Origin: Amphiscolops sp. MND2022
Taxonomy: Eukaryota
Assembly (NCBI GenBank): GCA_964187785.1
Contig: OZ076409.1
Location: forward strand, 64,232,001-64,296,000
Direction: 5' to 3'
DNA: 64,000 nucleotides
Made by a program: the position numbers and the translations under genes. Under the pieces are notes generated by a model, which was not told where the DNA came from, searched no databases, and saw only the letters and a list, made by a program, of their open reading frames with translations. Below, one piece after another: positions 1 through 43,300 of this stretch (the stretch's first letter is position 1; each line of letters begins with the position of its first letter).

Positions 1-158
1 TCTCCGCTTCGCGGGGTCTGCTCTTTCAGCTTTCTATGCTTTTCTAGGCAGGTACTTCGAAAGAAAACCATGTTCGAGAGCCACGTCATCCTTGAACGAA
101 TTTTTCAGCAAATTTCCATAGTTTCGAAAATCGTCGTTGATCACAGGATGCCGTTACA
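1..158 (-). repeat. E1 3' LTR (partial)
   Basis: Matches 19972-20129. On the minus strand it starts TGTAACGGCA and diverges from the other copy immediately beyond that end. Confidence 0.93.
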
Positions 159-168
159 TCCACTCCCC
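159..168 (-). other. E1 polypurine tract
   Basis: Minus strand GGGGAGTGGA directly precedes the TG of the 3' LTR. Confidence 0.85.
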
Positions 169-940
169 GGGCTTCTGGCTTGTCGTCCCTGGCAAGCTTC
201 GTAGGGGTCTTCGCTGAGAGTAGGGTCCCGCACATGCTGTGGATACATCTAGAAGTCAGACCGCCGTTGCATAGAACAGCTACCTTGGGGCATTGGCTTT
301 TCGATCCTATGATAATTTTACTGCAAAACCTAGTATTTTTACAAAAAAATTGAGTCATTTATAGCACCAGTGCGAGAGCTAAAAATTTTCAATAGCTAGA
401 GATGTCTGAAGCACCTTTGGCTGGCTAAAACTTTTTTTATTGCGGCAAGTGCCTGCTAAAAAATTTTTTAATTAGTTTAGTCAAGACTCGTTTTTTTTTC
501 AGTTTTTTGCTAAAAATGTCTTTTTGTAAGAGCGCATTGGCTCAACTCAAAAGTGGACAATCGATAGAACACACACGACTCAACCTACTAGTGTCAGATT
601 ACTTTAGATCTTTTTGCTAGTCTGCTGTGCTAGCGCACCTGGATCTCTTTTTTCGAGCGTCACTGGAGGCAACAATGATTGTTTTTATCTTTTTGTTGAA
701 CTTCGTTAACGTAACATCAGCACGAGGGGCAGGCGCACTCAATGACCGTACATCCAAGGCAGGCAGTGAAAACATTTGATTTACTAACTATTAAATAAAA
801 TTGCACCGAAATTAATGCAGCACCAAGGTAAGGCTAAAATGTTTATCATGAGTTTGTAGCAGGAATACGGCAAAAGAAGGCCTAGCTTCATTTGGGTTTG
901 TGTGAGCCCTCGGGCTCACCTACGTATTGGCAGAGGTGCA

Positions 941-1657
941 TCATTGGGCAGCAGACCTGTTCCTGCTACGAGGAGAAGTTTCCTTAGGGGGTGAGGCATC
1001 GCTCGTGGATACGCGTCTGGTAGGCGCCTCGGTGTCGATAGTTAATTGTCCAATGGGGTCAGCTAGTGCCGCATTGGTTGTAAGCTCTGCTGTGTGCTCA
1101 CCGGAAGGACTAGGGGCTACAGGCATAGCCGTCTCAACTGTAACCTCATCTTCCAAGGATGCAGCTTCCACGGTGAGGGTTTGCTCCAAGGACATGGTAA
1201 TAACAGGGGCAGCGGTGCTTTGAGATGGTGCTGGAGCATAGCACTGAGCACGCTCCTCTTCAGCGCGATGGTGAGCTGCTAGAGCTACGAGCTTTGAAAT
1301 CCATCCGCTTTGCTTCCAAAGCGCACACGCCTTCTTCCATATTTCGAAATTCGTCACTTCTAAGTGGAGACATTCGTCATCCAACTCGGCGCGCATTTCT
1401 GCGCCCAGCACTTGATTCACAATATCCAATAACGTCAGTGGCATATCTCCCGACATTGTCATACGGCCTTGCGGACGCCAGACCGGCTCATACTGTATCG
1501 GGGCCATCCGACGGTAAAGATTGCGGTCACGCACCTGCGCAGCGACGCTAATCCATTGTGGCAAATTCGCACAGTCTGTGTGGCGAAGCTGGTGGTTCAA
1601 AAGCTCCTGGCCGCGCGCGATTGGGCAGGCACGGGGATACCCACGGGCTCTTTTCAA
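941..1657 (-). CDS. E1 accessory ORF3, duplicate copy (238 aa, unknown function, disordered C-terminus)
   Basis: Open 238 aa; differs from 3297-4013 at only 2 residues. Confidence 0.6.
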   Translation of the reverse strand: MKRARGYPRACPIARGQELLNHQLRHTDCANLPQWISVAAQVRDRNLYRRMAPIQYEPVWRPQGRMTMSGDMPLTLLDIVNQVLGAEMRAELDDECLHLEVTNFEIWKKACALWKQSGWISKLVALAAHHRAEEERAQCYAPAPSQSTAAPVITMSLEQTLTVEAASLEDEVTVETAMPVAPSPSGEHTAELTTNAALADPIGQLTIDTEAPTRRVSTSDASPPKETSPRSRNRSAAQ

Positions 1658-3066
1658 TAGCGATTGGGTACTTTGATGAACTTGATCTTATAATCCGAGC
1701 GAACTGTGGGACTTGATTCCAGACTAGAGTTGATGGTTTTCTTCATAAAGTCCACGGTCCAGGGTAACCGAAAGGGTTGTCCATGGAGGTCCATTGGTGC
1801 GTTGTACCAGTTGACTGGTCCATACTCACGAGGGAGCACTGCGGCTTTGCGCGCGCGGGCACGAATGACGCCCATCATATTCTCCTCAGCTTGAAGCTCA
1901 GTTTTGATGGTCGTGTATGCTTGAGGCATCTCACCGCTCAATGTTTCTTGAATCATGCACTCATATGACATGGGTGGACTTCCCTGCAAGTAGGTATATT
2001 TCGAGACCGTTGCTACTTGAACTGCCATGGAGACGGGTTTGGTGGAATAGCGCAGCACACCCAAAGCTCCAAAGATAGGAATCAGTACCGGGGCGATGAC
2101 AGGGACCAGGTCTTCCACTTCAGCGAGTGTCAAGTCTGCCAATTGCTGTGGCAGTGGAAAGCCTGCATTCTCGCGCGGCAGTTGCGCGTCAGGGTGATGA
2201 AGGGGTTGAGCTTGGTGAACGAATAAACCTGATGCATAGATCAGAGTCGAGTATAACCAGTGTTGCACCGAAGCTCTCACGCGGAATAGGTGGTCGGCAT
2301 AGTTGTGCCCATTCTGCAAGAATAGTAACTCTCCGAAACCAAGCAAGCTGGTCAACTTTCCTTGTGCGATAACCACGTACGTGTAGAATTCTAGAATCCC
2401 TCCGGTAGTGGTCAAACCTACAAGAATGGCTAGGGGACCAGCCACGAATTTAGTGGGGCCCAAGGCCAATGCAAGAGCCAGTACCTCAATGACCGTGGTT
2501 CGCTGCAGCAAGTCGGTGAGTCTTTTCAACTGGTCATTCGTCAGACAAAATTCGGCGGCAATTACATCCAAATGCCAGCCTAAGCCAAAACTTGTTAGCA
2601 GCGCCGGAAAGGACGCAGACAATCCTCTGGCTGCAATTTCCAAGGTAACGGTGGCCAATCGGTCCTGATACCAGTCACCATACGTGACCTCACGCGCCTG
2701 GACCAGTTCGTCGAGGGTAACGGCTTCTTGCTCTACCAGGTGCCTCACACCCAGTGGCATTTTAATAATTTCAGTATTGTTGGCAAACTGGAGCTGAGGA
2801 ATCGTTCGCTCGATCTCGCGATTGAGTGGCCATCTGCCGATTTGATCCCAAACTGCAGCTAGATCCGCCTTAATTGTATTTGGGTGGGCTTCGCACACCA
2901 ACCAGTTGTACCGGCGCATGTTCTCGCGCTCTTTGAGTGTGGCCTCTGGACGAGTCCGATTGCCATTCTCATCGAAAGTTAGCGTGCCTAGACGCATTCC
3001 ATGATCGTAGTAGACTGCATCGTCCCAAGTGAGCTGTGCATTGCCTCCCTTTTCCACTGGCTGCAA
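1654..3066 (-). pseudogene. N-terminally truncated duplicate of E1 accessory ORF2 (C-terminal ~470 aa)
   Basis: Near-identical to the C-terminal part of 4010-6529 and cut at the duplication breakpoint 3116. Confidence 0.85.
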
Positions 3067-3296
3067 TAAGCGTGAGATCGCTGCCAGGTATGCGTGTGCT
3101 GACAGTGCGGCGGGGCAGGCAGTGAAAACATTTGATTTACTAACTATTAACTAAAATTGCACCGAAATTAATGCAGCACCAAGGTAAGGCAAAAATGTTT
3201 ATCATGAGTTTGTAGCAGGAATACGGCAAAAGAAGGCCTAGCTTCATTTGGGTTTGTGTGAGCCCTCGGGCTCACCTACGTATTGGCAGAGGTGCA

Positions 3297-4013
3297 TCAT
3301 TGGGCAGCAGACCTGTTCCTGCTACGAGGAGAAGTTTCCTTAGGGGGTGAGGCATCGCTCGTGGATACGCGTCTGGTAGGCGCCTCGGTGTCGATAGTTA
3401 ATTGTCCAATGGGGTCAGCTAGTGCCGCATTGGTTGTAAGCTCTGCTGTGTGCTCACCGGAAGGACTAGGGGCTACAGGCATAGCCGTCTCAACTGTAAC
3501 CTCATCTTCCAAGGATGCAGCTTCCACGGTGAGGGTTTGCTCCAAGGACATGGTAATAACAGGGGCAGCGGTGCTTTGAGATGGTGCTGGAGCATAGCAC
3601 TGAGCACGCTCCTCTTCAGCGCGATGGTGAGCTGCTAGAGCTACGAGCTTTGAAATCCATCCGCTTTGCTTCCAAAGCGCACACGCCTTCTTCCATATTT
3701 CGAAATTCGTCACTTCTAAGTGGAGACATTCGTCATCCAACTCGGCGCGCATTTCTGCGCCCAGCACTTGATTCACAATATCCAATAACGTCAGTGGCAT
3801 ATCTCCCGACATTGTCATACGGCCTTGCGGACGCCAGACCGGCTCATACTGTATCGGGGCCATCCGGCGGTAAAGATTGCGGTCACACACCTGCGCAGCG
3901 ACGCTAATCCATTGTGGCACATTCGCACAGTCTGTGTGGCGAAGCTGGTGATTCAAAAGCTCCTGGCCGCGCGCGATTGGGCAGGCACGGGGATACCCAC
4001 GGGCTCTTTTCAA
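3297..4013 (-). CDS. E1 accessory ORF3 (238 aa, unknown function)
   Basis: Long ORF overlapping the ORF2 stop by 4 nt. It may be a frameshifted continuation of ORF2. Confidence 0.6.
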   Translation of the reverse strand: MKRARGYPRACPIARGQELLNHQLRHTDCANVPQWISVAAQVCDRNLYRRMAPIQYEPVWRPQGRMTMSGDMPLTLLDIVNQVLGAEMRAELDDECLHLEVTNFEIWKKACALWKQSGWISKLVALAAHHRAEEERAQCYAPAPSQSTAAPVITMSLEQTLTVEAASLEDEVTVETAMPVAPSPSGEHTAELTTNAALADPIGQLTIDTEAPTRRVSTSDASPPKETSPRSRNRSAAQ

Positions 4014-7000
4014 TAGCGATTGGGTACTTTGATGAACTTGATCTTATAATCCGAGCGAACTGTGGGACTTGATTCCAGACTAGAGTTGATGGTTTTCTTT
4101 ATAAAGTCCACGGTCCAGGGTAACCGAAAGGGTTGTCCATGGAGGTCCATTGGTGCGTTGTACCAGTTGACTGGTCCATACTCACGAGGGAGCACTGCGG
4201 CTTTGCGCGCGCGGGCACGAATGACGCCCATCATATTCTCCTCAGCTTGAAGCTCAGTTTTGATGGTCGTGTATGCTTGAGGCATCTCACCGCTCAATGT
4301 TTCTTGAATCATGCACTCATATGACATGGGTGGACTTCCCTGCAAGTAGGTATATTTCGAGACCGTTGCTACTTGAACTGCCATGGAGACGGGTTTGGTG
4401 GAATAGCGCAGCACACCCAAAGCTCCAAAGATAGGAATCAGTACCGGGGCGATGACAGGGACCAGGTCTTCCACTTCAGCGAGTGTCAAGTCTGCCAATT
4501 GCTGTGGCAGTGGAAAGCCTGCATTCTCGCGCGGCAGTTGCGCGTCAGGGTGATGAAGGGGTTGAGCTTGGTGAACGAATAAACCTGATGCATAGATCAG
4601 AGTCGAGTATAACCAGTGTTGCACCGAAGCTCTCACGCGGAATAGGTGGTCGGCATAGTTGTGCCCATTCTGCAAGAATAGTAACTCTCCGAAACCAAGC
4701 AAGCTGGTCAACTTTCCTTGTGCGATAACCAGGTACGTGTAGAATTCTAGAATCCCTCCGGTAGTGGTCAAACCTACAAGAATGGCTAGGGGACCAGCCA
4801 CGAATTTAGTGGGGCCCAAGGCCAATGCAAGAGCCAGTACCTCAATGACCGTGGTTCGCTGCAGCAAGTCGGTGAGTCTTTTCAACTGGTCATTCGTCAG
4901 ACAAAATTCGGCGGCAATTACATCCAAATGCCAGCCTAAGCCAAAACTTGTTAGCAGCGCCGGAAAGGACGCACACAATCCTCTGGCTGCAATTTCCATG
5001 GTAACGGTGGCCAATCGGTCCTGATACCAGTCACCATACGTGACCTCAGGCGCCTGGACCAGTTCGTCGAGGTTAACGGCTTCTTGCTCTACCAGGTGCC
5101 TCACACCCAGTGGCATTTTTATAATTTCAGTATTGTTGGCAAACTGGAGCTGAGGAATCGTTCGCTCGATCTCGCGATTGAGTGGCCATCTGCCGATTTG
5201 ATCCCAAACTGCAGCTAGATCCGCCTTAATTGTATTTGGGTGAACTTCGCACACCAACCAGTTGTACCGGCGCATGTTCTCGCGCTCTTTGAGTGTGGCC
5301 TCTGGACGAGTCCGATTGCCATTCTCATCGAAAGTTAGCGTGCCTAGAAGCATTCCATGATCGTAGTAGAGTGCATCGTCCCAAGTGAGCTGTGCATTGC
5401 CTCCCTTTTCCACTGGCTGCAATAAGCGTGAGATCGCTGCAAGGTATGCGTGTGCTGACAGTGCGGCGGGGCGCAAGTCCGTCTTGCTGACGCGCAAGTT
5501 GGGCGCGCACAAGTAAAACTCGATGTTACGAGCTTGGCACACCTCACTCAGCATATATACGAATTGTTGGAACATCCCTCCCCAGTACAGCATGCCTGGA
5601 GGAGAAACAAACAGGGATGACATTCCCAACTGAGTGCGGAGCTTCTCTGCCGTACGCTCCATCGCGGTGGCATTTTGGTGCAACAATCTCGATACTTCAT
5701 TTCTGGCGGCGTCACGGGTGGTCATCTCGCGTAGTAAACGCGGCAGGTCTTGCAACTGGCCTTCACAAGCCATATGGTCCATTAAATTGGACAAAATAAT
5801 CCTCCGCGGTGGTGGCTCCTTTTGAGATCCTTCCAACTCCGGAGCGAACATGGCAATGGCTACTTCGGCCATCTCTGGCAGTCGCGACAACAGCATGGTT
5901 ACTACCAGGACATCCGGAGCCAAGTTGTCATACGGAAGGTCGCATGGGACCGTTGAATCCATCATCACGCAGTAGGTATTTTTTGAGATAGGTTGGATGG
6001 CTCTGAGACTTTGAGGATACTGTCCGTGGGTTTCCCAGGCTTCGCCTTGTTGCAATGAGTATCTGGCGGTGCATTGCGCATGCAAGTCGTTCATCATGGG
6101 TCGCAAATAGTTGTCATGAGCAGTAGTCAATCTCTGAACTACACGTTGCTCCCATGCTGGCTCACCTTTGTCGGCGTCAAAGGCTCGCAAGGTCCTCGAC
6201 ACATGAGCTACAATGGATAGCTTCTTCAGCTGAGCTTGGTCAGCGCTCGAGGGTGGAACCCGCCGTCGATCACGAAATTGCCGCTCATCTAGCCTTGGGG
6301 CAACCTGCCTCATGCGATTGGCATCGCGCGTTACCACAGTTCCTGCAACGTTATCAGACTGGGGAAAATAAGCCGGTGGTGTTGGTTTCGTAGATCTGGA
6401 AGCTGAGGAGGTCACTGATGTGCTCGAGCGTTCGGCACTGGCCGAAGAACTAGGACTTGGAGCATATCGTTCTATGGCTTCGTTCATTGCCATTTGGGGC
6501 GTGGGTACGCCACGGTAGCCCACTTTCACGTGCTCTTTTATAACTACTGAACGCAGCGCATGCTGGCGTTTATCCGGGGGAGGGCGACTTGTTGGACTAT
6601 CGGTGGTACTGACTGTTGGTGATTGCCCATGCGGCGAGGTTCGTTAACGACCCAGCTCTTCATCCGAGACGGGTGACAATCACGAGATAGGTGAGGGGGC
6701 TCTAGTCCTAGTAGTGCTAGGGCCAGGTGTATTTGAACTGGTGCCTGGACCAGGTGCTTCGAGTAGGTTTTGTAGGCCTGGAAATTGCTTGGACATAGTC
6801 TTGACGAACTCCCTTGATTCTGGATATTTCGCCACTGCTTGGAGGGGTTGAATGACTGCCTGCTCACTTAGCGTTCTATGTGACATGTCTGGTGCAGTGA
6901 TACTGCTGCGAGCAGATGAAGGTGCAGAAGACTGCACTGATTGCACTCTAGCGATAGACCTTGGAGAGGAGTCCTCGGGCTCCTTCTGGGGTGTTGTGCT

Positions 7001-7552
7001 TAATACCATGTGCGACGCATTGGCAGCTGGAGCACTGGCATAAGGTGCCATTTGAGCTGCAGGGGGCATCATGGCATGCACATTGGGCAGGTATGCTGCT
7101 TGACTCGTCAATTGCATTGATGGTGTCTGTGGCTGGATCACCAGATGTGCTGGTGGGAGAGGTTGCGGCATCGGCACGTTAACTATTGGGATCCGCAGCG
7201 TTGCTTCCTGCTCAATTGCTGTGAGCACGCTGGGACCTCGCACCTCTGAAGAGCGATCATTAGGGAACGGGTGGGTCAAATCGTAGCTGTCCCAAGTGCC
7301 GCTTTCACAGGTCATTGTACGCTTATAGCCAGCTACATCTGTGACTATAGAAACTGTCAAGCTAGGCAGTGTGGGCTGTGTCTCCAGTTGCGCCAAAAGG
7401 GCAGTGATCCCTGCAATGGCAGCTGGCGATATGCCATTGCGCAGCCTTTCTTCAATGAACTGCACTTGCCTCACACGTTGCGTTCGGGCAACGTCCTGAT
7501 TGGGTTGGGTCGAGGCAGGCATTGCTGCAGGGGCAGGGTGATGGTAAGCCAT
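4010..7552 (-). CDS. E1 accessory ORF2 in the env position, about 1,180 aa when repaired; disordered N-terminus, SGNH-like domain, hydrophobic segments
   Basis: ORFs 6680-7552 (290 aa) and 4010-6529 (839 aa) join through two in-frame stops and a 1-nt indel in a C run near 6575. ATG 7552 follows an acceptor-like TATTTTAG. Confidence 0.7.
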
Positions 7553-7558
7553 CCTGGT

Positions 7559-7580
7559 CTAAAATAGGTGCCTATTAGAT
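7559..7580 (-). promoter_or_regulatory. Putative splice acceptor for a subgenomic ORF2 mRNA
   Basis: Minus strand CTAATAGGCACCTATTTTAG|ACCAGGATG: branch-like CTAAT, pyrimidine run and AG 6 nt before the ATG. Confidence 0.5.
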
Positions 7581-7792
7581 CCTTGGTACTGATGTCATTT
7601 GGTGCATCGTTGAAACCGGTTCCATAAGGGAACTAGTCAGTGGAAAACATAATTGTAAATATCGAAAGGTTAATTAGGAGGGCGCTGAAGGCGTCCTTAT
7701 TTAACATAGATCTCAATAAAATTTAATGACAGAAAAGACGTACTCTAACAGAAATTAAAACCGAATTTACATGAGCTTTCGCTCAAGCAAGA

Positions 7793-9960
7793 TCAACTTG
7801 AGAGATGGCACTCAGGTGGCTTAACACCTATCTCTATGCTGAGTATAGACACGTACACGCGATTGTGTAGCACTACGTGAATGTTCGTGTCCACGAACAA
7901 ATCCACTAGTACCTTGTACAGGTTGGTCAGGGAGAATACTGGCCTTTCGGGCTCCAGTATCGGAAAATGGACTCAGGCAATACCCTTGTCCTCTAGCCAT
8001 GCCGTTAATTGTCGCATGCATAATAGGAAATCATCTGCTATTAGCGGGGCGCGCTGATTCGCACGGGTGATCAGCAAGTGTATGGTCTGGGTGGGTTTAG
8101 TGGTGATTGCAGGGGTCAGGGTCAGAATTTCTCCTACACGGGGGCGCAGTGAGAAAACTTGCTCCTTGCCGCATTCCCGCAACACGTAGCGCAGTGCTGC
8201 TGAGCTACTTTCTAAATCCGCCGGGCACGCCAGGGCTATATGCCCTTCGACTTGCAAAAAGTCAGTGGTGTCATAAGAGATGTATTCCACCATGTTCGGG
8301 CGTGGACTGCCGGGATACACTATTTCCCGACCCGGTCCATTATCAGGGGGCAAGCATACGCGTGGGGTGCGACCCTGTATGGCGGCTAAATCCTGCCACA
8401 CCGAGCGCGGCAACGCTTGGTTGTCCACACCTGCTCGGACCCACGTGTCCAGCGTGTTCAATGCTGCTCTCACTTTCAGGGTCTCCTCAAAATTGTGAAT
8501 CCATTCGTCATATAGACGAATGCGGGGGTAGTTGGTGAAGCACGTTATGATTAGCTCCAACCACCAGCGAAATTTTACTTTCCCACGATACCAGTCAATA
8601 AGGTGGAAGCACAAGATTAGGTGTTCCGGTGTGGAAGTTCTGTGGTTCCACTAACGCATCTACACGTGGTGCAGTCACTAACAGCCACCAGTGCGGAGCT
8701 GGACTATACACGCCACCTGGTTCTACCTCGACTCCGTATCGGTCCAACAGCAGGTCAGCAGTGATGCATCTGGCCATTTGCACTGGCTCCCGCTCAAAGT
8801 TGAACGGACCAAACACAATGTTAGGGGGCACTGGGGGTACCACGGTTGCCAGCGTGAATTCTAGGCCTTTGCCGTCACTTGTTCATTCCTTAATTCGAGG
8901 ACATGGCGCCTTCGCAACGCCCGGTACGCCGATTCGCTGCAAGATGGTTTCTGCTGAATAATTCTTGGTTCGCTCTAATCCAGCGAAGGTCTTTTCCGCT
9001 CGCACCACGATACGATGAACCAGTTCAGCATTGTGTCGTCCCTCCGGGGGAACTCCCCGGGCTCCAATGGGAACCTCCCGGTTCTCGTGCACGGCTAGCA
9101 CGCATACGCAGTCGCGCAAGCCACAGGTGCCGCATTTGTATCTGGGCTGCAGTTTCTGTCTCAATTGGTATCTATTTTGGGATCCCGTTTGGCTGTCTGA
9201 AATTGGCGCGTGGACCTTGGACGCTGCCTTTTCCGAAGGTTTACGTGGACGGGGTGCCCTTGTCGCACTTGTCTTTTTCCGAGGTCTCCCCCTCCCCCTT
9301 TTAACAGAAGGAGCCGTGTGTGGTTTGGGTAATGGTGGTGGGGCTTGGTCCGCTGAGGGTGTAGGCGGACGAGAAGTGGGGGCGCTGGTATCTTTGGCGT
9401 GATCGGGCCAAAGAGGGTAATTACTGAGGTAGTCGGTAAGAGAAGGATCGTCAGCAGCGGAGCAGAGGTACCCGAAGGGGATAGCTCCGGTGGATCGTCT
9501 GACGGTGATAACTGGGGTGAGGGTGAGCGCCTAGGCTCATGATCGGAGAATAACTGCGGAAGGCAGTCGATTATAGTTGTGTCTGACGGAAGAGCGGGCA
9601 CGGCGGGAGCTTCGATGATGTCCGCAGGTTGTGTCTGGACCAGTTGTGGGGAATTGGTAGGAGTGGGGAGCATCGCGTCCGTCGTTTCATCGTCGGTCTC
9701 AGACGTGGAATAATCGAAGTGTTGGTAATGCTGCCGGGTTCCTCCCGCGCGCAGCCTATTGCACAATCTAGTGTCCATCCAATGGCGTCGCCTAGAGGGT
9801 AGCGACACACCCGAGGCCTCTGAAAGTAATTGTTCTGAGTCATAGGAGGGCTGGGAGCAATCATCATCAATAGGTTCTACGGAGCGCTCGGGCTCAGGAT
9901 CCATTACCACGGCAATGTCAATGCTATCTAATGGGATGGCAGCGAATTCCAGGGGGCCTT
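7793..9960 (-). pseudogene. E1 integrase C-terminal extension: disordered region, AT-hook, CxxC-x4-CxC motif, macrodomain (TARG1/Poa1p-like)
   Basis: Fragments 9161-9910, 8883-9164, 8595-8843 and 7973-8614 plus read-through to 7793 join by three frameshifts and two TGA stops. KRGRGRPRKK lies at about 9273-9302. The macrodomain pattern ISYDTTD..HIALACPAD..VGEILTL..IHLLITR..GIA*VHFPI lies at about 7860-8290. Confidence 0.72.
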
Positions 9961-12900
9961 GTATTATGAGGTTTCAAACGTTCAAATTGGACTTTTTGTC
10001 CTGTGTCCAGGATGTATACACGCCCATCCTGGAGAGTATGAAAAATGCGATGCGGGCCACGCCAAACTCGCATCAATTTTGGTGAACCCTTTTGTGGAAC
10101 GTATCGACAAAAGACCCAGACCAACTCGCCAGGTTTATAGGCTTTGGCAAAATTAGAAAAGTGGTCAATGATGACTAAGATACCTGTGTTTCCATCATCG
10201 GTGGGGCAAGGCTTCATATGATCGTACTGGACCAACTCATTAAAGTACTCGCTTTGAATATTCTTGAGATGGAACAGCACGTCCCCAGGTTTGTCTCGAA
10301 CCTGCTGGCACGTGAGACACTGGCTCACGTACTCGCCCAAGGTGCGGCGAATGCCAGGCCAGGTGTGGCGTTCCTGTATTCGCGCCACGACTTTGCCGAT
10401 GCCTTGGTGACCCATAGCATCGTGGGCACGGAAGAGAATTTCATGTCGATATAACTGAGGCATCACAATCATGCAAGGGCGTTCATGAAGTGGACGTTGG
10501 GCTGGGGGGTATTTCACACAGAGCACGCCATTGGAATTTGGGAAAAGTAGCTCCTTCTTTTGCTTGAAATAGTTCCGGGCAAATGCACGTACGTCCTCGA
10601 GAAATATATCTTGATCGATTTTTTCCCCATTCACCAGTTTTTCGGGTACAAGGACATGCACGTCTCGATTCTGTGCGAGGAGTAAGTCCTTGATGCCATG
10701 AACCGTGTGGGTATGCTCGTGCAGCTCGGTACTCACACTGTGAACAGCCAGTGCGGCTTGCCTGATGTGACCTGGGACATTTTGCATGGTCACTCCGTCA
10801 GAGTTTGCTAGGTCGTAGGTGGTACGCGAGGGCACGTGGGTAATGTGCGTGGGCAGCAGATACTCATGATGAGCTTCTTCAGTCACATCAATCCAGTCCT
10901 CTGGATAGTCGGGATAGAAGTTTTCGTGAGCATGAAGGATTGCGGGTGGCGGTTGCGGCAAAGGTGCTTCCAGTGCTTTCTGCCGTTGGTCTCGTCGTCG
11001 GCTACGTTGTGCGCGGCAGATCACGCGTTGGACAATATCAACAGGTGTGGGCTGCAGGTTTTTGAGATGCTCAGGTAGCTCAGGATGGTTCGGGATAATC
11101 CGGCCTTGTAGATCGAACCAAGGTGCTGTGGGCAGCTGTTCGTATTCATCTTGAGATAAGAAATGCCAGCGCTCTGCTACTGGGGGCAGCTTTTCGAGTT
11201 GTTGCTCCCTCCATCGGTAGTCGTTTGTTCGTTTGGACAATCCATCGGCATTGCGATGTTGCGTTGGGGGTCGATGTTCGACCCGGAAGTGGTATTTTTC
11301 CAGCGTCATGATCCCTCACCAATCAGGGCTTGGTCAGTAGAATACGTTTTGAGCCACGAGAGGGCCTGATTGTCCACGCTCAACGTGAACTTACGCAGGC
11401 AAAGGTAGCTCTGTGATTCTTCACAATGAAGTGATGAGCAGCGAACATTTCCAGTTTAGGCGCTTCGTATTTGACTTGCGTAGCGGTGAGCTTCTTGCTA
11501 CCATAGAGTATTGGACGTAAACGTCGCTCTCCAGGTGGGCCTTGCCACTGGTGGAGGATGCCAGAGATGGCGACAGCACTAGCATCGGTATCCAGAACAA
11601 ATTCGCCTTCCGAATCCAGTTGCGCCAGCGCGGTGGCATCGATGAGCGCTTTTTTATTTCATTGAAGGCAAGCTGTTGTTCGGATCCCCAAGCAAAGGTA
11701 GCGTTGAGGCCAGTGATAGCATGCAAGGGGCCACCAGTTTGGCATGCCAGGGAATGATCTCGCGGTAATAATTGGCAAAGCCTAGGAAGCTTTGCATTTC
11801 TGTCTTGTTACGCGGAACTTCCCAGTCGCGCAGCTTTGCAACGGCCTTGGGGTCGGGCTTTATCCCTTCCGCGGACACTACGCGACCGAGGTACTTGATT
11901 TCGGACTTCATCAAATCGCACTTAGCAACTCGCATCTTGAAGCCAGCCTCGCGCAAGCAATTGAAAACCTCACGGAGAGGTATCATGTCGTCTTCCACGG
12001 TTTCAGTGGCGATGACTATATCATCTATGTAGGCCATAACCATGCTACCTTCACGATTTACGATGTTGCGTAGTGCTCGTGTTATTGCTCTTTGGAAGGT
12101 GGCAGAGGCATTGCACATGCGAAAGGGCATGCGTCTCTACTCGAACAACCCTAACTCACAGGCAAAGGCGGTTTTTTGGCGGTCAGCTTTCCGAACCGGT
12201 TTTTACCAAAATGCCCAAGCTAGATCTATGCTAGTGTAGATTTTAGCTTTGCCTAGCCTGGCTAGGCTCTCATCGATGCGAGGCAATGGATATGCATCCT
12301 TTACGGTGACCTCATTCAAAGTGCGGAAGTCACAGCAGAAGCGTATCTCGCCGTTCTTTTTCTTCACCATCACAATTCCGCTTGCCCAAGGGGACAAGAA
12401 AGGTTGGATCATTCCCAACGCAAGCAAGTTGCGCACTTCCTGATTACCCCGTTCGGCTTTTTCAGGAGACATGCGCCTTGCACCCTCGCGGTGAGGTATG
12501 GCGCCTGGTTCTACCTCCACTGGATGCTTGGCTATGGTGCATCGACCAATGTCAGCTTTGTGTTTCATGAACAAATCATTAAACTCTATAAGAATGTTCT
12601 CAAGCGCTCTACAGGCCGCTGGGCCCAGAGGTCCTGGACCTCCTTAAGCTGTGACTCAGGTCCCGGTATGGGAGCCATAAGCTCTGGGTCCGCGCGCTTG
12701 CGTATCTCATGATCCGAGAGACCTGCTTCGGTTGGCTCAGTTGAAGACAAAAATTCAAATTCGGACGAAGAGGTTAATTGAGAAACAGTACTATAGTTCA
12801 TTTTCTCATAAACTCTATTTACAAACGAAAGATGGTCGTTTTTGACCTCAGTTTTGGGGTTGTCCGGTGTTTGCTGAGGAATGGCCTGGTAGACCAAGGA

Positions 12901-14059
12901 GACCGGTACTACATGGCCCAGCCGAGTTCCCTTCCGCACCCGTTGAGGGTTACTTGTTAGATTCATCAGGCTGACGAACATCAAGCCTGACTCGCTGACA
13001 GTGGCGACGCTGTCCTCTAAAAACACAACATTGTGCAATGACGCGTCAGCAATGGCTGCGTTCAAGGCTACACTTTGAAAGATCAATGGTTCAAGCGTGT
13101 CAGTGATGAGCTTAGCTTTAACCACTGTGCGCTCGAAAAGCTGTAGGACTAGATCGCTGTCCAAGGCAACCGGGGTAGCTAACGAAGTATCACCTACCTG
13201 TGCGTGTGCATGATGCCAAACGGGCTTCATGGGTGCTCGCACAACGATCTTCATGGACGTGAGATCCACCAGGACCTGATAGGAACGGAGGAAGTTCCGG
13301 CCTAGCAGAAAGTCCTCCACACACATTGCATCGTCCACTACGACAAAGTTGGTTTCAAGTTCGTACCCTCCTAATTGGAAACGAATCTGCTCGGCTATCC
13401 AAAGGTCTTTATTGTTTTTCCATTAGCAGCATACAAGTCGATTTGATAGGGCTTTAGGACAGTACCGGTCCGAGCAGCTACTCGATTGAAGGCGGAGAAC
13501 GTAGATATCGATACGCCTGAACCGGTGTCCACCAGTCCACGTAGTGGGACAGGTGCCGCATGGGGCACTACGAAAGAAACAACAAGTGACGCACGTTCGT
13601 CAATACGTGCCTCACCAGTGGGTTCCTGGTGGTTGATGTTGTAGCACTTCAGTTCTTGGGGACCCAGACATTGGCCAGGTGGGAACACATCCACCGCCAC
13701 ACAGGCTTCAAACGTTACATCCACACCATCCATGGTGGCACAGATTGGCACTGGGGAATACGTCGTCAGGGTTTCAGAATCTCCGGGGGCGTACCATTCT
13801 TTGCGACGGGGCAACTCAACTCTAACATCAGGTGAATCGAGATCAACGTCCGTCCTTGTGGGTCGAACGTGGTATGCTCTAAGCAGGTTTGGACTTGCTT
13901 GGCACCGCAAGTAATTGTTAGCGGGGTGTAGAATGCTGGCAGTTCCGCCGGATGTAGCATCAATACGCGATCATCCTCTAAGGGTACTGTGTGCGCAGCG
14001 ACGCCAGCCGACTCAACCTCGGCCCATCGGTTGTAGGCGAATTCGTCATTGGGTTTCAA
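9924..14059 (-). pseudogene. pol: E1 pol: protease, dUTPase-like spacer, RT, RNase H, integrase with core deleted
   Basis: LVDTGSG and LLGRNFL (PR); SIDLAWAFW and AYIDDIVI (RT); DTDAS, LEM, VDNQAL and NADGLSK (RH); HDAMGH..CLTC (IN zinc finger); GPY/F-like WRGPHRI. Several frameshifts. Confidence 0.95.
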
Positions 14060-16544
14060 GGAGTGAGAGTGTTACCGCATTGCGCATCCGCATGATCAAA
14101 AATTCCACAGTTGCTGCATTGACGAATTCCGGGATAGCCTTCCAGAACACCATCAGTCACATCTTCGGCAGTGACTTTCACGCCTTCAGGCTCGGGGACA
14201 GCCAGTGGTTTACGAGCTTGGTCGCGATTAGGGCAGTCTCGAGCAAAGTGCCCAGTTTGGCCACAATTAAAGCAAGCACCCAAGGGTAAACTCACGGCAG
14301 GTTGTGCCGCTGCTTGATTTAGCGGGGCATTGCTCGCAGGTGGGGGGCATCACCCCTTGAGGTAGCACCATCTTGTTGGGGGTAGTGGTGCGAAAGGATG
14401 AGGCCTTGACCTCATGGCATATCGAGGGTCATAGGGTGCCGACCTTGGTCGAGTACGCTGCAGTTGCCGTGTTGTAAATCGCAATGATTCGACAGTGGGA
14501 GGCTCGGTGACCGTGGATTTGGACGCATAGATAATAGAGAGCTTCCTTCGTAGGGCTGGGTCACGAACACCTTCGATAAAGCGCTGCAAGAATTCATAAC
14601 GTTAAGTTGTGACGGACTCACCAGGGAAGCCTTGGCTTCGCAGCCCCTCCAATGCATCTTAATACTGCATCCAGTTTTCCCTGTCGGATTGCTGTCGCGT
14701 TGCAAAGGCCTGACGCATTTGCATGCGATTACCTCCCGTTCCGAATCGACTAGCTAACAAGTCAAAGACCTTTTCCGGTGTGTCTCTTTCAGACTCGGCC
14801 TTGTTGATGATGTAGTTTCTGGCTTCACCTTCTAGGTGCCCAATGATGCTCCATGCTTTGTCATCGGGGGTGGCTTTGGCCTGAGTGCGTTGGAGGTAGC
14901 GACGCATAACTAGGATCCAACCATCAATGGAACCCTCCTTTGAACCTCGGTAGACACTGGGCCTAGCCTGCGTCGGGTCACGCCCGGCCAGCAATGGGGC
15001 TAACTCTTTGGACATGGCCTTGGAAATTGCCGCGGTGAACTGTAACTGCTCTTGGGAGACTACTTCTCCTTCCTCACTAGGGGCGGGAGAATTGTCTCGA
15101 CTTCCCCTGGTGCCTTGCATGGACAGTTCACCATTTACGTCGTCCTTCTTACGAGTGATACTGGCGCAAGGGTCACCAGTGGGGACTCCCTCACTCGCAG
15201 TGAGGAACATTGAGGTGATACCTGCGGTTCCGCTTCTGGCAGTGGTGTAAACCTCGTCTTCGGCGCTGTTATCGCGTGAGCCAGCCGTTGCCTTGGTATC
15301 AGTTAGATCGACGGTTGATGAGGTAGTCGTCATGGGATCTACTGTTCGATTTGGGGTGCGAGTAAATGTTGGTGCCGGCGGTAGCGACACGCTACTAAGT
15401 GGGTTGGGTGCGCACACGTGCACTTTGTTGGTCTTCTTGCCGGTCGGTGGCGGTTTGGACACTCTGGGTTCAGACTTGGGGCTCGTTTTCAACGTGATCG
15501 GTTGATTGGGAGTGCGCATAGGCACGGTTTTGCTGGTAGATGCGATGGGTTCGGCGGCCTTGGGTTGCTTATCGGCAGGTGCCGCAGTGCGGGATGCAGC
15601 GCTCAGGGTATGCATCTGGTTGTTAAGCTCCGCCATCTGGACTTCCATGCGCAGTTCGCGTTGGAGGAGCATGTCCTTCATCTCTTCCAGACGATACCCC
15701 AAGGCGTCAACCTTGGCTGCTTGCACTGTTGCTGTTGTGTGGCAGCCCTCAGGCTTTCCTTTACCGAGGTCTGCATAGCTTCCAGTTCCGCAGTGATAGA
15801 TTGGTGTTGTTCATTGGACTCAGCGCGGGTGTCGGCTAAACGTGCCAAGGCCCGCTGGGCTTCGGCTTCCGCCTTGAGCATCGCGGTCCTTGCTGCTGCC
15901 GCCTCCTCGACGGCTCTGTACGTCGAGGAACGTCGCGAAGAGGTGCTCGACGTGGTGCCATCGCGATAAGAAGAGGCACTGTCACGGGCCAATTCTTCTT
16001 GCACGCACAATGTGGGAGGGCGTGTCTTCTGTTTGCCAGCGCTTTTGGCTCGGCTTGCCTCGAGCCGGTATTTAGCATATTTCATGCCGCCTACGTAGGT
16101 CATATTCTCTACGACCGCCGCAGTGTCGTTACTGGCTGGACTATCATCGTCTCGGGGTGGTCTTGAGCACCCATTACCGGCAGGGGTCATCTGCGCTGCC
16201 GTTTGATTTAAGTTGGATCAGAACCCCGCGGTTTGAGGCGACACCAATTCACCCCGATTGTCTTGGATCCACTGTCCCGTGCGGATAAGCTCATTGGGTA
16301 CAGGCGAATCCCCACGATAGAGAGTCATGGCATTCTGCTCCTCTCGTCGCTGCTGATCGGCAGTTACGCAATCACTTATTGCTTCTGAAAAGGAAGAACC
16401 GGTTACCAAGGAATCCACAGAGGACCATGCCGTTAGGCTCAGTTCGCTAGTAGCGCTAGAGTCCTCTCGTTAGATTGAACTCGTTTCTTGCGCATCATCC
16501 ATGTCCACGGCATTGCTGGTGCTGGACTCGCTAGTCCTCGACAT
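14056..16544 (-). pseudogene. gag: E1 gag: coiled coil, capsid-like region, two zinc knuckles
   Basis: YRGSKEGSIDGW..HLEGEARNY..FGTG (retrotransposon capsid pattern), CFNCGQTGHFARDC and CSNCGIFDHADAQC. Broken by stops and frameshifts; start inferred at ATG 16544. Confidence 0.88.
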
Positions 16545-17940
16545 CCCGCGCGCGAGCAGTTTGACAATGGCCGCTACACTGGTCCAGAACATGATGTATC
16601 AATCGGACGACCGCGCAGTGATTTGAATCGACGTACCGATGACGGCCAATCCGACAATTGATAGGCTATGTGGTCACGCGAAATCTTGTCCGATACACCC
16701 CTGCAAGGTTCATCTTCCGTAAGAGGAGTTCCGGGAACTCGGGAGATGCTTACGGCTCCCGCAATCTGCCCTCAGGGGTTCCCAGGGGGAGTCCGACCTC
16801 CAGTAGTTCCGGTGAGGACACAAGAAATTTTCGACACCTTAGCACGTTTCGGGAAGGTCGAAAACACTTCGAACGGTAGTATCGAGCTCAATTTTGCACA
16901 CGCAGTAGGTATTCACCCACAAGCTCCGAAAGTAAGCCTGGATTTACGCTAGGGGTGTGTGGAGATCAGTGCGGAACGTTTTCTACACTCTCACTATTTT
17001 CTCAGATTTTGCAAAAAAAAACACAAGTGGCTCGTATTCGTCACTCAACAGTCATATCTGGCTCAAATATGGCCAAGAGATCCTACACACACGTAGGTAC
17101 ACGATGGTGAACGCCGATTTGGGTTCCTTGACTTGTGCGCACTTTGCCCTGGGTACAGACGTGCGGTACTCCTGTGTACCAATAGGGGTCAAAATGCACT
17201 CTTATCACGCAACTTCTAGACACTGGCAATTGCCAGCGGGCTAGTTTTTTTTGCTAGCAGTGTGCCAACTAGTATTGGTTACGTTGGTGAGCATTAAACT
17301 GTTCCTACTCTCCAGCTAAGTTGTTCGGGGTTTTCAAAAAAAAAACTTTGCAAAAATGGCCTTTTTGCACCCCTTTTTGAGCAGTACTTTTCGTGCTATT
17401 TCTCGACGACTATCGTGTCAATCAAAACAAAACTTGGCACGCGTTGCCAGTGGGCACCTACAATGCCGGTTTGATAGTCCAATTGAAGCGCCTTGGCTTA
17501 TTTGGGACTTCGGCTAAGTACCGACACGATCTTAGAAAAAGCGGTCTTTTTTTCGACACTTTTCTCACAAATCGGCTAAGAGGGTCGACACTACAAATGT
17601 TGCGGCAGGCTCAGTGGGTTTAACGTGTTGCCCCACTGGTCACAGCACCTCCACCAACTACTAATTGGCCGTGCCCTTTCTGTGTAAGACACTATTGGTT
17701 CGACAGTTTTGGCTTTTTTCGGTTATTTCGGTGCTGTCTGAGGTCGAAACGTCAGAGGATTTTTCTCAACGTTGGTTAGCGCTAGGGCAATCAAACTTTT
17801 GGCACTAGCGTTAATTGTGGCGGTGGTTACGAAAATGCAACCAGTTTTTAGCTAGGGTTCGGGAATCAATGACCCGACCCTAACAATTGGACAGTCCGGT
17901 TCTGTTTAAATTCGGCCAAATTCTGTGCGTTTTTCCACTT

Positions 17941-18212
17941 TTCTCAGCACTGAATGGGAGTTTTTACATACAGTTTTCACCAGTACACGTTGTTTTTTAT
18001 AGAAAAACAGGAAATGAGAGCGCATAGGCTCCTGGATAACAAAAAGACGGAGTGCCCTAGGGGTTTTAGTTGTGTACTCAGACACTCCTGATAGTTACTA
18101 AAAGTCAAGGTTTTTCAACTTTTCTCAGCACTGAAAAAGAATTTTTGCACGCGGTTTTCACCACAATGCGTTATTTTTATTGTACAAACAGAAAATGAGA
18201 GCGCTTGGGCTC
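17941..18212. repeat. Diverged direct repeat, offset about 181 bp, in the E1 5' leader
   Basis: TTCTCAGCACTGA..GTTTTCACCA..GAAATGAGAGCGC..GGCTC at 17941-18032 and again at 18122-18212. Confidence 0.75.
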
Positions 18213-19366
18213 GCAGAAATAGTAAAGGGTTGAGTTCAATAAATTTTTTACGCTACGTCCAACTAGGCCACAAACGGCCTAATATGCAAGACTTTCGCTT
18301 TCTTGCTGCTTCTATACCAGTTAAACAGTTACTGAAAGTTATTTACGGTACCCTAGGGTTGTGACTCGCTCAAGAAACTACTTTACAGCGGTACCCCAGG
18401 CTTCTACACTTAGTCACTGTGGTGTTTTTAGGGTGTTTTTTACAGTTATTCTCACTTTTCGCACTTTTTCACAGGAAATTCCAACTTTTTCACCTAAAAG
18501 GGGCAACGGGGACGCTTGCCCGTTATTTTTCCTTGCTCCCTCAGGCTTTGAGGCAAATTTTGCCATCATTCTGGAAGGGCTACGTTGGACTTACGGAGCA
18601 CTCTTGCTCCAACCAATGAAAACACTCAAAAACACGAATTTTCGCTGTTTTTTTTGGAAATTCTCTGTTTTCTTCGCTCAAAAGCGTTCCATAGGGTGTC
18701 GTTACATCGTCAAATAGTGTGACTGACCTGAATGATTCCCCATAAAAAAGACGCAATTTCAAAATTTTCAGGGACCATGACCTATCTGAACGACACATCT
18801 GGTCCAAGGGGGTGTACCTTCGCCACGCAATTTCTCCACATCCAGACCAGTTAGAGACTTGCGGTTTGGACCGTTAGTTTCGTCAGGAGTGGTACTAGCT
18901 GTCCACCAAATTTCACTTCTCACGGACGTCGCCACGAGAAATGGGTAACGGCGAACCATAGCACTCAATTTCACCTCCCCGTCGCTCGGGTGGAGTATGG
19001 ATTTTCCACCATCGGTACCTGTCTTGCATAGCTCAAAAAGCTGAAAAAGGCTAGAAAAACCGGTTAAACACCCGTAGCCACGTGCTACGGTAGCCATAAC
19101 CTGCAAAACATGTACCCGCTGAAGGGCTAACAACATGACATCACACAACATACATTTACGGGTTTTTCAACCTCAAAAATGCCATTTTCATACCTGAAAA
19201 CGCATCTTTCTCGGGTTATTCTGGGCTTTCTTCGTTCCAGCTGCTAGGAATACGCATGAACGTTAAAATAAAGGAAAACTCTGGATTCTCCCACAGAAAC
19301 TGTCTTGGCGCTAAAAACCAGAGGGTCAGAAATTTTAATAACGATGCAGGAAAGCTTCCCAAAGAC

Positions 19367-19385
19367 GATCCCTCTGTGGTCGCCA
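19367..19385 (-). other. E1 primer-binding site, probably tRNA-Arg
   Basis: Minus strand TGGCGACCACAGAGGGATC resembles the complement of animal tRNA-Arg(UCG) 3' ends (..CCCTTCGTGGTCGCCA). Confidence 0.7.
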
Positions 19386-19400
19386 AAAAATGAAGTTCCA

Positions 19401-20129
19401 TGTAACGGCAAGCGCTAAGCGTTTGGGACGAAACATTGGAGTGAAGGAACTGACACTATGGATATGGTCCGGGAGAAACCACCATAGTACCAGCTCACTT
19501 TGTCCTCCTGTGGGTAGCCGGTCCCGAGGAGGGGGCACCGTCCTAAGGGATGCTCTCTGACCTGTTCCAGTCTTTAACTGCTGAGAATAACGGGCATTAT
19601 GCTTTTTCTCTTCACAACCACCGTCTAAACAGCCTATAAAAATGGGGCTAGTTGCATAGAACTCAATTGAATCGTTCAGAATCGTAAATAGCATCAAAAG
19701 CTCTCGAATAACACATAAATCAAACAAATCATTAAAACAGCCTCATAAAAGAGTTAAATCCAGTCTTTGGCGAGCAGTTGAGTCTAGGTGGCATAGCACC
19801 GGCGGTTCTTGGGCTGATCACAACCCTGGGTCCGGAAATGGCAATTATCTCAGCATATGGGTGGTCTGGTACGATACATTTTCATCTTGTCACCGTGGGT
19901 TTTCTCGAAGTTAAGCGCATAGGCTAGGTTCTCGGGCCATTTCGCAGGTCCATCTTACGCTTTTTCAGTTCTCTCCGCGTCGCGGGGTCTGCTCTTTCAG
20001 CTTTCTATGCTTTTCTAGGCAGGTACTTCGAAAGAAAACCATGTTCGAGTGCCACGTCATCCTTGAACGAATTTTTCAGCAAATTTCGAAAATTTCGAAA
20101 ATCGTCGTTGATCACAGGATGCCGTTACA
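19401..20129 (-). repeat. E1 5' LTR (about 730 bp; inner end is 19401 or 19391)
   Basis: 10-bp terminal inverted repeat TGTAACGGCA..TGCCGTTACA, adjacent PBS, and match to 1-158. Confidence 0.88.
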
Positions 20130-21272
20130 TAACTTCATACAGTTACAACAATTATGTTTCGTTTGTAGTGGTGATATTTTCGTCTCTTTAAATTATCGTT
20201 TAAGATTATCCATTTCTCCAACGATGCTTTTGTTTGTAGAGAAATGCTTGAAAATTTAGAACATACATATGCTTATTTGTCACCATACTGGTCCACTTGA
20301 TTTGTCTGATTGAAAAGTCTGAGAACTTTTGCTAAACTATCATGGACTATCGAAAACGTCTCAATCATGATTTTATTGGTGTCTTAGAACGTCTTTAGCG
20401 ATTACATCGGCTCGGAAAAAATCGTCACTCTGCTCGGTAACATTGAATAAATTTTCTTCCATTGGCATTCCTCACATGCCAATTTAAGAAATTTTTGCAT
20501 CCTGAATTGAATTAGCTTTTTACATTATTCACCATTCGAGCAAACTGTTTATAAACTTTGTTTGGAAAAGCGTTACGGAAGTATATTACTACAAATTATC
20601 ATCAATATTATCATATCTGCTTTATAGCTTTGGTCGTTTTTAAATGCACTTTTCACGCCAAAGGAGATCAAAAAATCATAGTGAGTCAAATATATATTTC
20701 TAACGAATATGTTAGGAAATACTTTCTCACAACCTGAAACTTGTACAGTAGACAAAAAGATGACATTTTTGAAAGTCAATTCCATGGAACAAGAACATGT
20801 TGGCTTGGGAAAAAACCTACAAATATTGTGGTTCCATCTGTAGAGCTCCCGGAGTTTTTGTATCCAGCAACGATTTCTCGCAAACAAATTAGGTTATTTG
20901 TTTTTGTACGACTCACGTCTTATATACACAGCTCACTCTAATTTTTGGTGGGAATGGCTATCTTATCCCCGGCAACTAGAGGTCACAGACATGACTAAAC
21001 TCCAAAGGCTTGAATTTGTTGACAAAGAAACCTCAAACAATACAAGAACGTCTCAAGTGGGCGCCCCGCTTGAGGCTCAGAGAGTGGAAAGTCTCAAATA
21101 TGCTCAGAGTAGCTTTAATGAAATTCTCAAATTTTCAGAGAGCAAAAATCCAAAAGGGCCCCATGTAACCATCCAAAAGTATCAATTTGGTAGATGAAAG
21201 CTTTTTATCGAAAAAAACGTTCTCAATAAACCACTGAAGAAAACAAGGAGGAGACCCTTGAGGCTCGTTTGA

Positions 21273-21470
21273 TGTGGTATTGCCTACGTATTCAGAAGGC
21301 TAGACAGAAACCATGAAAGTACCTGCATAGAATATTGACGTTGAACAATTTCATTTTACGTATGCGCTACCATAGATTTCAGTTTAGATGCTCTGTTGTT
21401 ATGATTTGATTTTACTGATTCTGATTCTGAAGAAAGTTTAGAAATTTCTCTTTTCTATTATTCTATTACA
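21273..21470 (+). repeat. E4 5' LTR
   Basis: TG..CA bounded, aligns with 26966-27163, followed by TGGCGCAGTC (tRNA-Ser-like PBS). Confidence 0.88.
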
Positions 21471-21479
21471 TGGCGCAGT

Positions 21480-26837: not shown

Positions 26838-26965
26838 GGAACGCAGCCAGAACAGTGGGAAAGTTCTGGGCACACCCGCAGCAACTTTGCTAGTAAATCC
26901 GGACTGAGCCCACCAAAAACGCCCGGAAAGCAGGATTGGTTCCCTTGACACATGAAGGGGGGGAA

Positions 26966-27163
26966 TGTGGTATAGCCTACGTTTTTAGAAGGCCAGCTAG
27001 AAGACATGAAAGTACCTACCTAGAACGAAGATCTTAAACATTTTCATTTTACGTAAGTGCCACCATTGATTTCAGTTTAAATATTCTGTTGTTATGATTT
27101 GATGTAACTGATTCCTAATCTAAAGAACTTTTAGGAACTTCTCGTTTCTATTAGTCCATTACA
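26966..27163 (+). repeat. E4 3' LTR
   Basis: Preceded by the PPT and aligns with the 5' LTR. Confidence 0.88.
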
Positions 27164-33753: not shown

Positions 33754-34037
33754 TGGCTGCTGGTACCATATCTTACTTCGGTAGTATTCCGAAAGGTGCC
33801 AACTTACAAAGGCAGAACTGCTCATTCGGCATCCACCCCGCGGAATTGGGGAAAAATATTTTGTTGTTCAAAAAATCTTTCTTCAATTTGTTTCACCTTT
33901 TTTTAGAGTTTTAGGAGACTATGAGGACCAGAAGGTTCCCCTTTTGCTATTTTCTCGATACGGTATCGAGCAGTTCTGCCTTTGTAAGTTGGCACCTTTC
34001 AGAATACTACCGAAGTAAGACATGGTACCAGCAGCCA
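33754..34037. repeat. 70-bp inverted repeat (33754-33823 and 33968-34037), 144-bp spacer
   Basis: The arms are reverse complements with 2 mismatches. Confidence 0.92.
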
Positions 34038-43106: not shown

Positions 43107-43300
43107 TCAGAACATTCAATTGTTACATCCCATCTTTTCTCTTTGCCCATGAGGACATGTATTTTTACTGGGACCGCTCTGACTTTATTTTTTTATGCTG
43201 CAATTAATAGACTGTCGACAAAGCGACTTAGAGGAAGAACAAAGAAATAAATACAAATGCAGTTTATAGTTTAAAGTTTACATATGTACTGTGCGTACAA

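Follow-up and report, generated by a model that had tools for sequence, protein, structure and literature searches.

A predicted SGNH-fold domain with degenerate catalytic positions in the env-position ORF3 of giant Ty3/gypsy retrotransposons from Amphiscolops sp. MND2022

Which kind of protein is encoded by a Ty3/gypsy retrotransposon when the open reading frame (ORF) following pol lies in the place of env and behind a putative splice acceptor? The question is raised by an element on the minus strand of a 64,000-nt stretch of DNA from Amphiscolops sp. MND2022 (assembly GCA_964187785.1, contig OZ076409.1, positions 64,232,001 to 64,296,000), which we refer to as the window. The element is a long terminal repeat (LTR) retrotransposon with an LTR pair of 95.2% identity, flanked by a 3-bp duplication. 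A preliminary description made from the sequence alone had reported one large ORF of about 1,180 aa, here termed ORF3, with an SGNH-like domain and no features of an envelope protein (Env). An ORF in the env slot behind an acceptor need not be Env, and for ORF3 the predicted fold of the encoded protein points in another direction.

An AlphaFold model of window positions 6376-4013 (788 residues), built from 149 sequences, contains an alpha/beta domain of five strands with a predicted local distance difference test score (pLDDT) of mostly 85-97 over model residues 150-350. In the remainder of the model, a helical domain reaches pLDDT values above 90 and other parts are poorly modelled. Structural alignment (VIA, 48,161 chains) returned platelet-activating factor (PAF) acetylhydrolase 1bwp as best match (Z 11.3, root-mean-square deviation (rmsd) 3.5, 181 aligned residues), followed by GDSL esterases, and the 50 matches listed are SGNH/GDSL proteins or chains whose alignment covers the same domain. 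A second structural alignment agrees (Z 11.3-11.4, rmsd 3.5, about 180 residues). The OSK domain of Oskar appears at rank 32 with Z 8.1, level with many esterases, while the ZfL2-1 esterase is not among the 50 matches listed in either alignment, an absence that is uninformative because its crystal is domain-swapped. High-probability rows of Foldseek are SGNH proteins too, and no fusion protein is among the Foldseek matches listed for the 788-residue query, which is dominated by the SGNH domain. Several points weigh against the assignment: Foldseek against the PDB and viral models gave no match at E ≤ 0.001, Pfam no significant match for ORF3, the fold call rests on Z values of 8-11, and about half of the ORF3 protein is without fold assignment. 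Sequence and profile searches of PDB chains with the queries A2 and A4 yielded no matches at E ≤ 10, and the ESM Atlas search no usable match; five matches of the distant homologue P0341 to PDB chains in such searches were dismissed as chance. ORF3 very probably contains an SGNH fold, as had been proposed, and the motifs on which that proposal was based (CVMMDS..RRIILSNLMDH..FVSPPG) are located at 5971-5464.

Does this domain retain the equipment of an esterase? The register of the conserved blocks was taken from their spacing and from aligned ranges, using the blocks of PMC10792757 and the ZfL2-1 numbering of PMC3905857. Counts refer to non-gap rows of alignment A3, decayed copies and fragments included. 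The nucleophilic Ser of block I is kept in 51/60 rows and the preceding Asp in 54/59. The oxyanion Gly of block II is replaced, by Leu in 59/69, and occurs only in the distant P0341 and P0345; the Asn position of block III is hydrophobic (Leu 29, Ile 16, Phe 10 and Met 7 of 69). Block V reads x-D-L-R-P as opposed to D-x-L-H-P in active enzymes, with Arg at the His position in 58/72 rows and Asp at the acid position in 9/68. Model residues 132-324 align with residues 1-179 of Escherichia coli thioesterase I; provided that no gaps occur at the ends, the catalytic Ser10 and His157 of this enzyme would correspond to model residues 141 and 302. The Ser-to-block-II spacing of 22 is identical to that of ZfL2-1 (S143, G165; PMC3905857), and it is this shared spacing, together with the Gly of P0341 at the block II place and the aligned thioesterase I range, that backs the register. 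Judged from the aligned sequences, four of five catalytic positions are thus replaced across the clade and Ser alone is kept. The earlier statement that the catalytic His is replaced by Arg stands, but the loss goes further: the Asp of DLRP misses the position of the catalytic acid by one residue, and degeneration extends to blocks II and III.

ORF3 is conserved in other copies of the family and whole in relatives from the same genome, where four subfamilies (A-D, the window element belonging to A) are 24-52% identical to each other in ORF3. The frame is longer than first described, namely 1,426-1,491 aa in relatives and 1,426-1,456 aa in database relatives. Of 146 same-genome matches to the SGNH region, 46 fall within frames that stay open for 1,400 aa or more, all at 53-55% identity, and none of these frames belongs to subfamily A; subfamilies C and D supply many further ORF3 frames of 1,432-1,492 aa. 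Ten copies were analysed over their entire length; most of them measure 18.8-19.4 kb, with a gap of about 175-283 bp ahead of ORF3, and in the three unbroken ones Gag-Pol is one frame of 3,111-3,262 aa. Young whole copies are many, with LTR pairs of 98-100% identity, and the family is one of large, recently active retrotransposons of about 19 kb. Between subfamilies, ORF3 is 24-52% identical as compared with 69-85% for reverse transcriptase (RT)-RNase H, and ORF3 is therefore old in the clade. The ratio of nonsynonymous to synonymous substitution rates (dN/dS), calculated pairwise and with dS near saturation in places, is 0.062, 0.093 and 0.095 for ORF3 in three diverged subfamily pairs, 0.044-0.068 for the SGNH part in the same pairs, 0.085 for Gag-Pol in one pair and 0.195 for ORF3 in one close pair. 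These values place ORF3 under purifying selection in the clade. Since selection keeps a fold whose catalysis appears to be lost, binding is the likely role, and the retention of the domain under strong selection throughout the clade after the loss of its catalytic set argues that binding and not hydrolysis is the useful property.

The ORF3 homologue P0212 has a best match of only about 30% among 98 same-genome places scored, and the family therefore likely reaches other genomes; no longer relative of P0212 was found among 7,999 scored, and a scan of Joint Genome Institute (JGI) metagenomes gave 99 pattern matches, none of which was confirmed. A further homologue, P0170, lies on an 816-bp contig in a bacterial metagenome bin and is likely mis-binned host DNA.

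The window copy itself is dead and incapable of making the ORF3 protein. The claim of a single open ORF does not hold, as the frame from 7558 to 4010 comprises 1,183 codons with two internal stops, and after a frameshift homology to the intact relative P0010 continues from about 4010 to 3309 in another frame (the C-terminal 250 aa). Neither stop is present in ten aligned loci of the subfamily (11 were checked; one did not align). The features of the element, all on the minus strand, are the following.

20130-20132, minus strand: 3-bp target-site duplication; the matching copy borders the distal end of the 3' LTR, beyond the window
19401-20129, minus strand: 5' LTR (TG...CA), about 730 bp, compared with the 3' LTR
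19376-19385, minus strand: TGG motif resembling a primer binding site, about 15 nt inside the LTR end, common to relatives; candidate primer binding site
18721-18730, minus strand: candidate splice donor CAG/GTCAGT in the long leader, kept in subfamilies A and B
7835-16427, minus strand: gag-pol remnant in many frames, with stops and frameshifts, integrase core partly lost near 10140
7835-8300, minus strand: C-terminal domain of Pol, predicted TARG1-like macrodomain fold (folded from the relative L025)
7559-7578, minus strand: acceptor-like site with CTAAT, short pyrimidine tract and TAG, conserved in relatives
6683-7552, minus strand: 5' part of ORF3, encoding a conserved N-terminal block (about 7486-7244) and then a Pro/Ser/Thr/Gln-rich linker
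6644-6682, minus strand: two in-frame stops (6680-6682, 6644-6646), private to the window copy
5387-6118, minus strand: predicted SGNH-fold domain (AlphaFold model and structural alignment)
5956-5954, 5890-5888, 5782-5780 and 5473-5471, minus strand: sites of the SGNH domain, namely the Ser codon, block II Leu, block III Met and block V Arg
4589-5119, minus strand: confidently predicted all-helical domain containing the first hydrophobic run (AlphaFold model)
4409-4465, minus strand: single conserved hydrophobic segment ending PIFG, low pLDDT, possible membrane-dipping helix
3297-4043, minus strand: C-terminal part of ORF3, in another frame in the window copy
758-3116, minus strand: tandem duplicate of 3114-5472 with a second partial ORF3, 18 mismatches in 2,359 bp
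159-179, minus strand: polypurine tract, present likewise in relatives
1-158, minus strand: first part of the 3' LTR, the remaining ~575 bp lying beyond the window edge

The gag-pol remnant corresponds to a single frame of 3,100-3,260 aa in intact relatives. The two copies of the 2,359-bp tandem duplication (758-3116 and 3114-5472) are 99.2% identical and share a short motif at the junction; the duplication was not found in two subfamily siblings compared and may be real or an assembly artefact. The leader (16500-19400) has a length of about 2.5-3 kb, is devoid of long ORFs and contains an internal 100-bp repeat at 17929-18212. Between protease and RT, positions 12589-13422 look like a degenerate dUTPase fold by eye and have no Pfam match.

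How would ORF3 be expressed? Homology to Pol ends at 7835, and ORF3 follows in the env slot after a gap that is indeed AT-rich (37% GC in 7559-7800 as compared with 53% in ORF3). The acceptor-like site pointed out previously is present as TTTTAG with an upstream CTAAT, and the ATG lies 6 nt beyond. A pyrimidine tract with YAG precedes the start at a constant position in 30/34 loci (A 14/17, B 3/3, C 8/8, D 5/6; three of 37 loci were excluded as the ORF start was missed), and C and T exchange before the AG while the gap sequences align poorly. With a matrix built from 27 host actin and tubulin introns (five of 32 excluded: one duplicate, three doubtful, one sharing a length key), the acceptor falls within the top 0.6-1.6% of AG sites in 6/7 elements. 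Among the GT sites of the leader, the candidate donor at 18727 takes first or second place, and similar donor sites are found nearby in subfamily C and one D copy. On the other side, the acceptor of the window copy ranks 139 of 1,284 AG sites, within the low end of host sites. A strong GTRAG donor common to all leaders was not found, host donors being degenerate, and a pattern search in subfamily B, of a kind that would miss many instances, returned no genomic copy in which the ORF3 start is spliced. On balance, splicing of ORF3 is likely. In subfamily B (L025 2196-2212; L027 1987-2003), the acceptor is followed by a two-codon upstream ORF whose stop overlaps the ORF3 start codon, and it is possible that this overlap serves translational control.

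The product of such a spliced RNA would bear little resemblance to Env, in agreement with the preliminary description. There is neither a signal-like stretch nor an invariant Cys, and there is one hydrophobic segment. A hydrophobic stretch at the N-terminus is missing in the window ORF and in relatives (hydropathy, maximum 1.39 near the start), and among six ORF3 proteins, with 7-20 Cys each, no Cys is invariant. Of the long hydrophobic runs noted before, the second might dip into a membrane, but the first, which scores 1.4-1.8 (Kyte-Doolittle, window 19), maps to two helices of the helical domain. The single segment scores 1.73-2.44 in 6/6 proteins and is situated about 400 aa before the C-terminus.

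The elements show the hallmarks of Ty3/gypsy, i.e., TG...CA LTRs, a polypurine tract and a target duplication, as well as the order protease, RT, RNase H, integrase (motifs at 1102, 1601, 1750 and 2138 of a 3,262-aa frame), and Pfam detected RT and the integrase zinc finger in the window gag-pol. Target-site duplications measure 3 bp in 21 of the 22 copies with resolved ends from four subfamilies (L061-L100), one being 5 bp and none 4 bp; 31 copies were examined and nine without resolvable ends were dropped. LTR finder defaults demand duplications of 4-6 bp, which is of practical importance as finders with this demand would miss these elements. For LTR elements in general, duplications of 3-6 bp are given (PMC10045372), and the 3-bp duplications are therefore uncommon but not unprecedented.

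Pol is predicted to end in a TARG1-like macrodomain that is fused to Gag-Pol. The predicted fold of the last 150 aa (L025) matches TARG1 4j5s (E 2.4e-8, TM 0.83), and structural alignment points at a TARG1/DarG-like macro fold (Z 17.6, rmsd 2.5, 140 aligned). The preceding domain has weak macro-like matches (Z 7.0). Judged by eye, the glycine-rich ADP-ribose loops of TARG1 may be replaced, and Pfam gave no significant match for the Pol tail. That the tail is a second SGNH domain was ruled out by profile comparison (0.5%) and the macro-like fold. The macrodomain is further preceded by clustered Cys residues and by a basic motif resembling an AT-hook (window 7835-8300; L025 815-1909).

GDSL-type ORF3 proteins are not without precedent. 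Bdelloid Vesta1 LTR retrotransposons carry a GDSL esterase as ORF3 (PMC5408684), which the preliminary description did not name, and resemble the elements studied here in having the SGNH/GDSL domain in a gypsy-like ORF3 slot in place of env and no clear Env features. Vesta ORF3, however, is about 1.3 kb with intact catalytic residues, whereas ORF3 of our elements is 4.3-4.5 kb, multi-domain and degenerate. Athena-L Penelope-like elements contain catalytically dead GDSL derivatives, so that such proteins are known from another class of retroelements (PMC5408684). ORF1p of the non-LTR element ZfL2-1 shares the SGNH fold and a Ser that closes strand 4 (S228 in ZfL2-1; 49/67 rows in ORF3). It is, however, an active enzyme that is encoded upstream of pol, contains a coiled coil and has a pI of 10.8, and its H191 position is Phe, Ile or Leu in ORF3 (PMC3905857). 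The OSK domain of Drosophila Oskar has an SGNH fold without the triad and binds RNA (PMC10792757); like ORF3, OSK (PDB 5a4a, Z 8.1) carries a hydrophobic residue where Asn is expected in block III, but it lacks Ser and keeps Gly, whereas ORF3 keeps Ser and has mostly lost Gly. The likeness to ORF3 is one of fold. CERV of Caenorhabditis elegans Cer1, made from a spliced mRNA and required for genomic RNA export, is likewise a non-Env accessory protein of an LTR element and serves as an analogy of role only (PMC10309623). Macro folds have been noted in ORFs of epsilon-like endogenous retroviruses of fish (PMC4977317), whereas here the macrodomain is fused to the end of Gag-Pol. Burro and Ogre resemble the clade as giant gypsy elements with long polyproteins and extra domains, but these domains differ, and Burro has env homology inside the polyprotein (PMC6431247). 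A literature search of incomplete coverage turned up no description of this clade, of a gypsy ORF3 whose SGNH domain is degenerate or of a Pol tail resembling TARG1.

What, then, may ORF3 do? By analogy with these systems the protein might associate with membranes or RNA. The env position behind an acceptor-like site could suggest that ORF3 confers infectivity on the element as an envelope or fusion protein of an unconventional type, but a protein without signal peptide and invariant Cys and with at most one hydrophobic segment, some 400 aa from the C-terminus, is highly improbable in this role. A hydrolase or acyltransferase that is active through a rewired site, made up of the kept Ser and the Asp-His of block III, has more in its favor: Asp and His are near-invariant (62/68 and 63/69), Ser, Asp-His and the next Thr are kept down to about 25% identity, and in some SGNH members of solved structure at least one canonical residue is missing (PMC10792757). 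As replacements affect every one of the Gly, Asn, acid and His positions, and P0212 and P0341 have Tyr and Asp, respectively, in place of the block III His, we consider such an enzyme improbable all the same. It is also conceivable, if hardly more so, that ORF3 acts with the macrodomain at the Pol end as an antagonist or decoy against host silencing or stress signalling. That a single element has borrowed two enzyme folds and that young whole copies are many would fit, whereas the low dN/dS in all folded parts is unlike a surface in conflict with the host, and no host partner is indicated.

Our preferred reading, to which we assign a probability of roughly 45%, is that ORF3 is a non-catalytic cytosolic scaffold docking RNA-Gag particles on membranes. 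The protein would be made from a spliced subgenomic RNA via the conserved acceptor; the Ser-plus-Arg pocket may bind an anionic ligand such as a phospholipid head group or RNA without cutting an ester; the conserved hydrophobic segment may dip into the membrane from the cytosolic side and the low-complexity linkers may gather particles. The outcome would be to steer assembly or transport without membrane fusion as by Env. The ZfL2-1 esterase binds anionic lipids, and its liposome binding survives active-site mutations (PMC3905857). On the other hand, that binding is by surface charge at a pI of 10.8, whereas the SGNH domain of ORF3 has a pI of 6.1-9.3 and a net charge of -3 to +7, which counts against simple charge-driven binding of lipid or RNA, and the hydrophobic segment contains prolines, comes after acidic residues, is poorly modelled and is maybe buried. 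A less probable alternative is an RNA-binding regulator resembling OSK or CERV that binds the 18-kb unspliced RNA for export, protection or germ-line localisation. Pointing in this direction are the RNA binding of triad-less OSK (PMC10792757) and its Z of 8.1 to ORF3, the export function of CERV (PMC10309623), basic linker clusters (RKR, KKR) in subfamilies B, C and D and the 2.5-kb leader that is conserved at about 70% between subfamilies. OSK, however, scores no better than many esterases, the SGNH domain of ORF3 lacks a strongly basic character, and Pfam searches found no RNA-binding family for ORF3. Three points lead us to favor the scaffold over the RNA regulator: the conserved hydrophobic segment, the precedent from a retroelement and the Ser of strand 4 that ORF3 has in common with ZfL2-1.

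One may tentatively go further and propose that a giant gypsy clade has swapped Env for a 1,450-aa intracellular dead-esterase machine and that its integrase makes 3-bp duplications. Together with the Pol macrodomain, this machine would move particles along membranes without the help of a fusogen, and might even bring them from cell to cell or to the germ line; we regard this full scenario as rather unlikely. While GDSL ORF3s themselves are known, the combination of a clade-wide pseudo-esterase ORF3 of about 1,450 aa with a Pol-fused macrodomain and 3-bp duplications did not come up in the above literature search. The role of SGNH domains in retroelements has been open since their discovery in LINE ORF1 proteins and rotifer ORF3s, and the family offers a high-copy, recently active system for testing it.

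Other elements are present in the window. A second Ty3/gypsy element occupies 35277-51548 on the plus strand (16 kb) and has 1,679-bp LTRs of 99.6% identity, a weak dUTPase match and, after pol, three antisense ORFs of 314-404 aa (43301-47710) without Pfam match. Older, decayed gypsy-like relatives of this second element, 69-74% identical, are situated at 52995-58723 and 21272-27163. At 33754-34037, a 70-bp inverted repeat is 97% complementary, with arms 144 bp apart, and likely represents a small DNA transposon.

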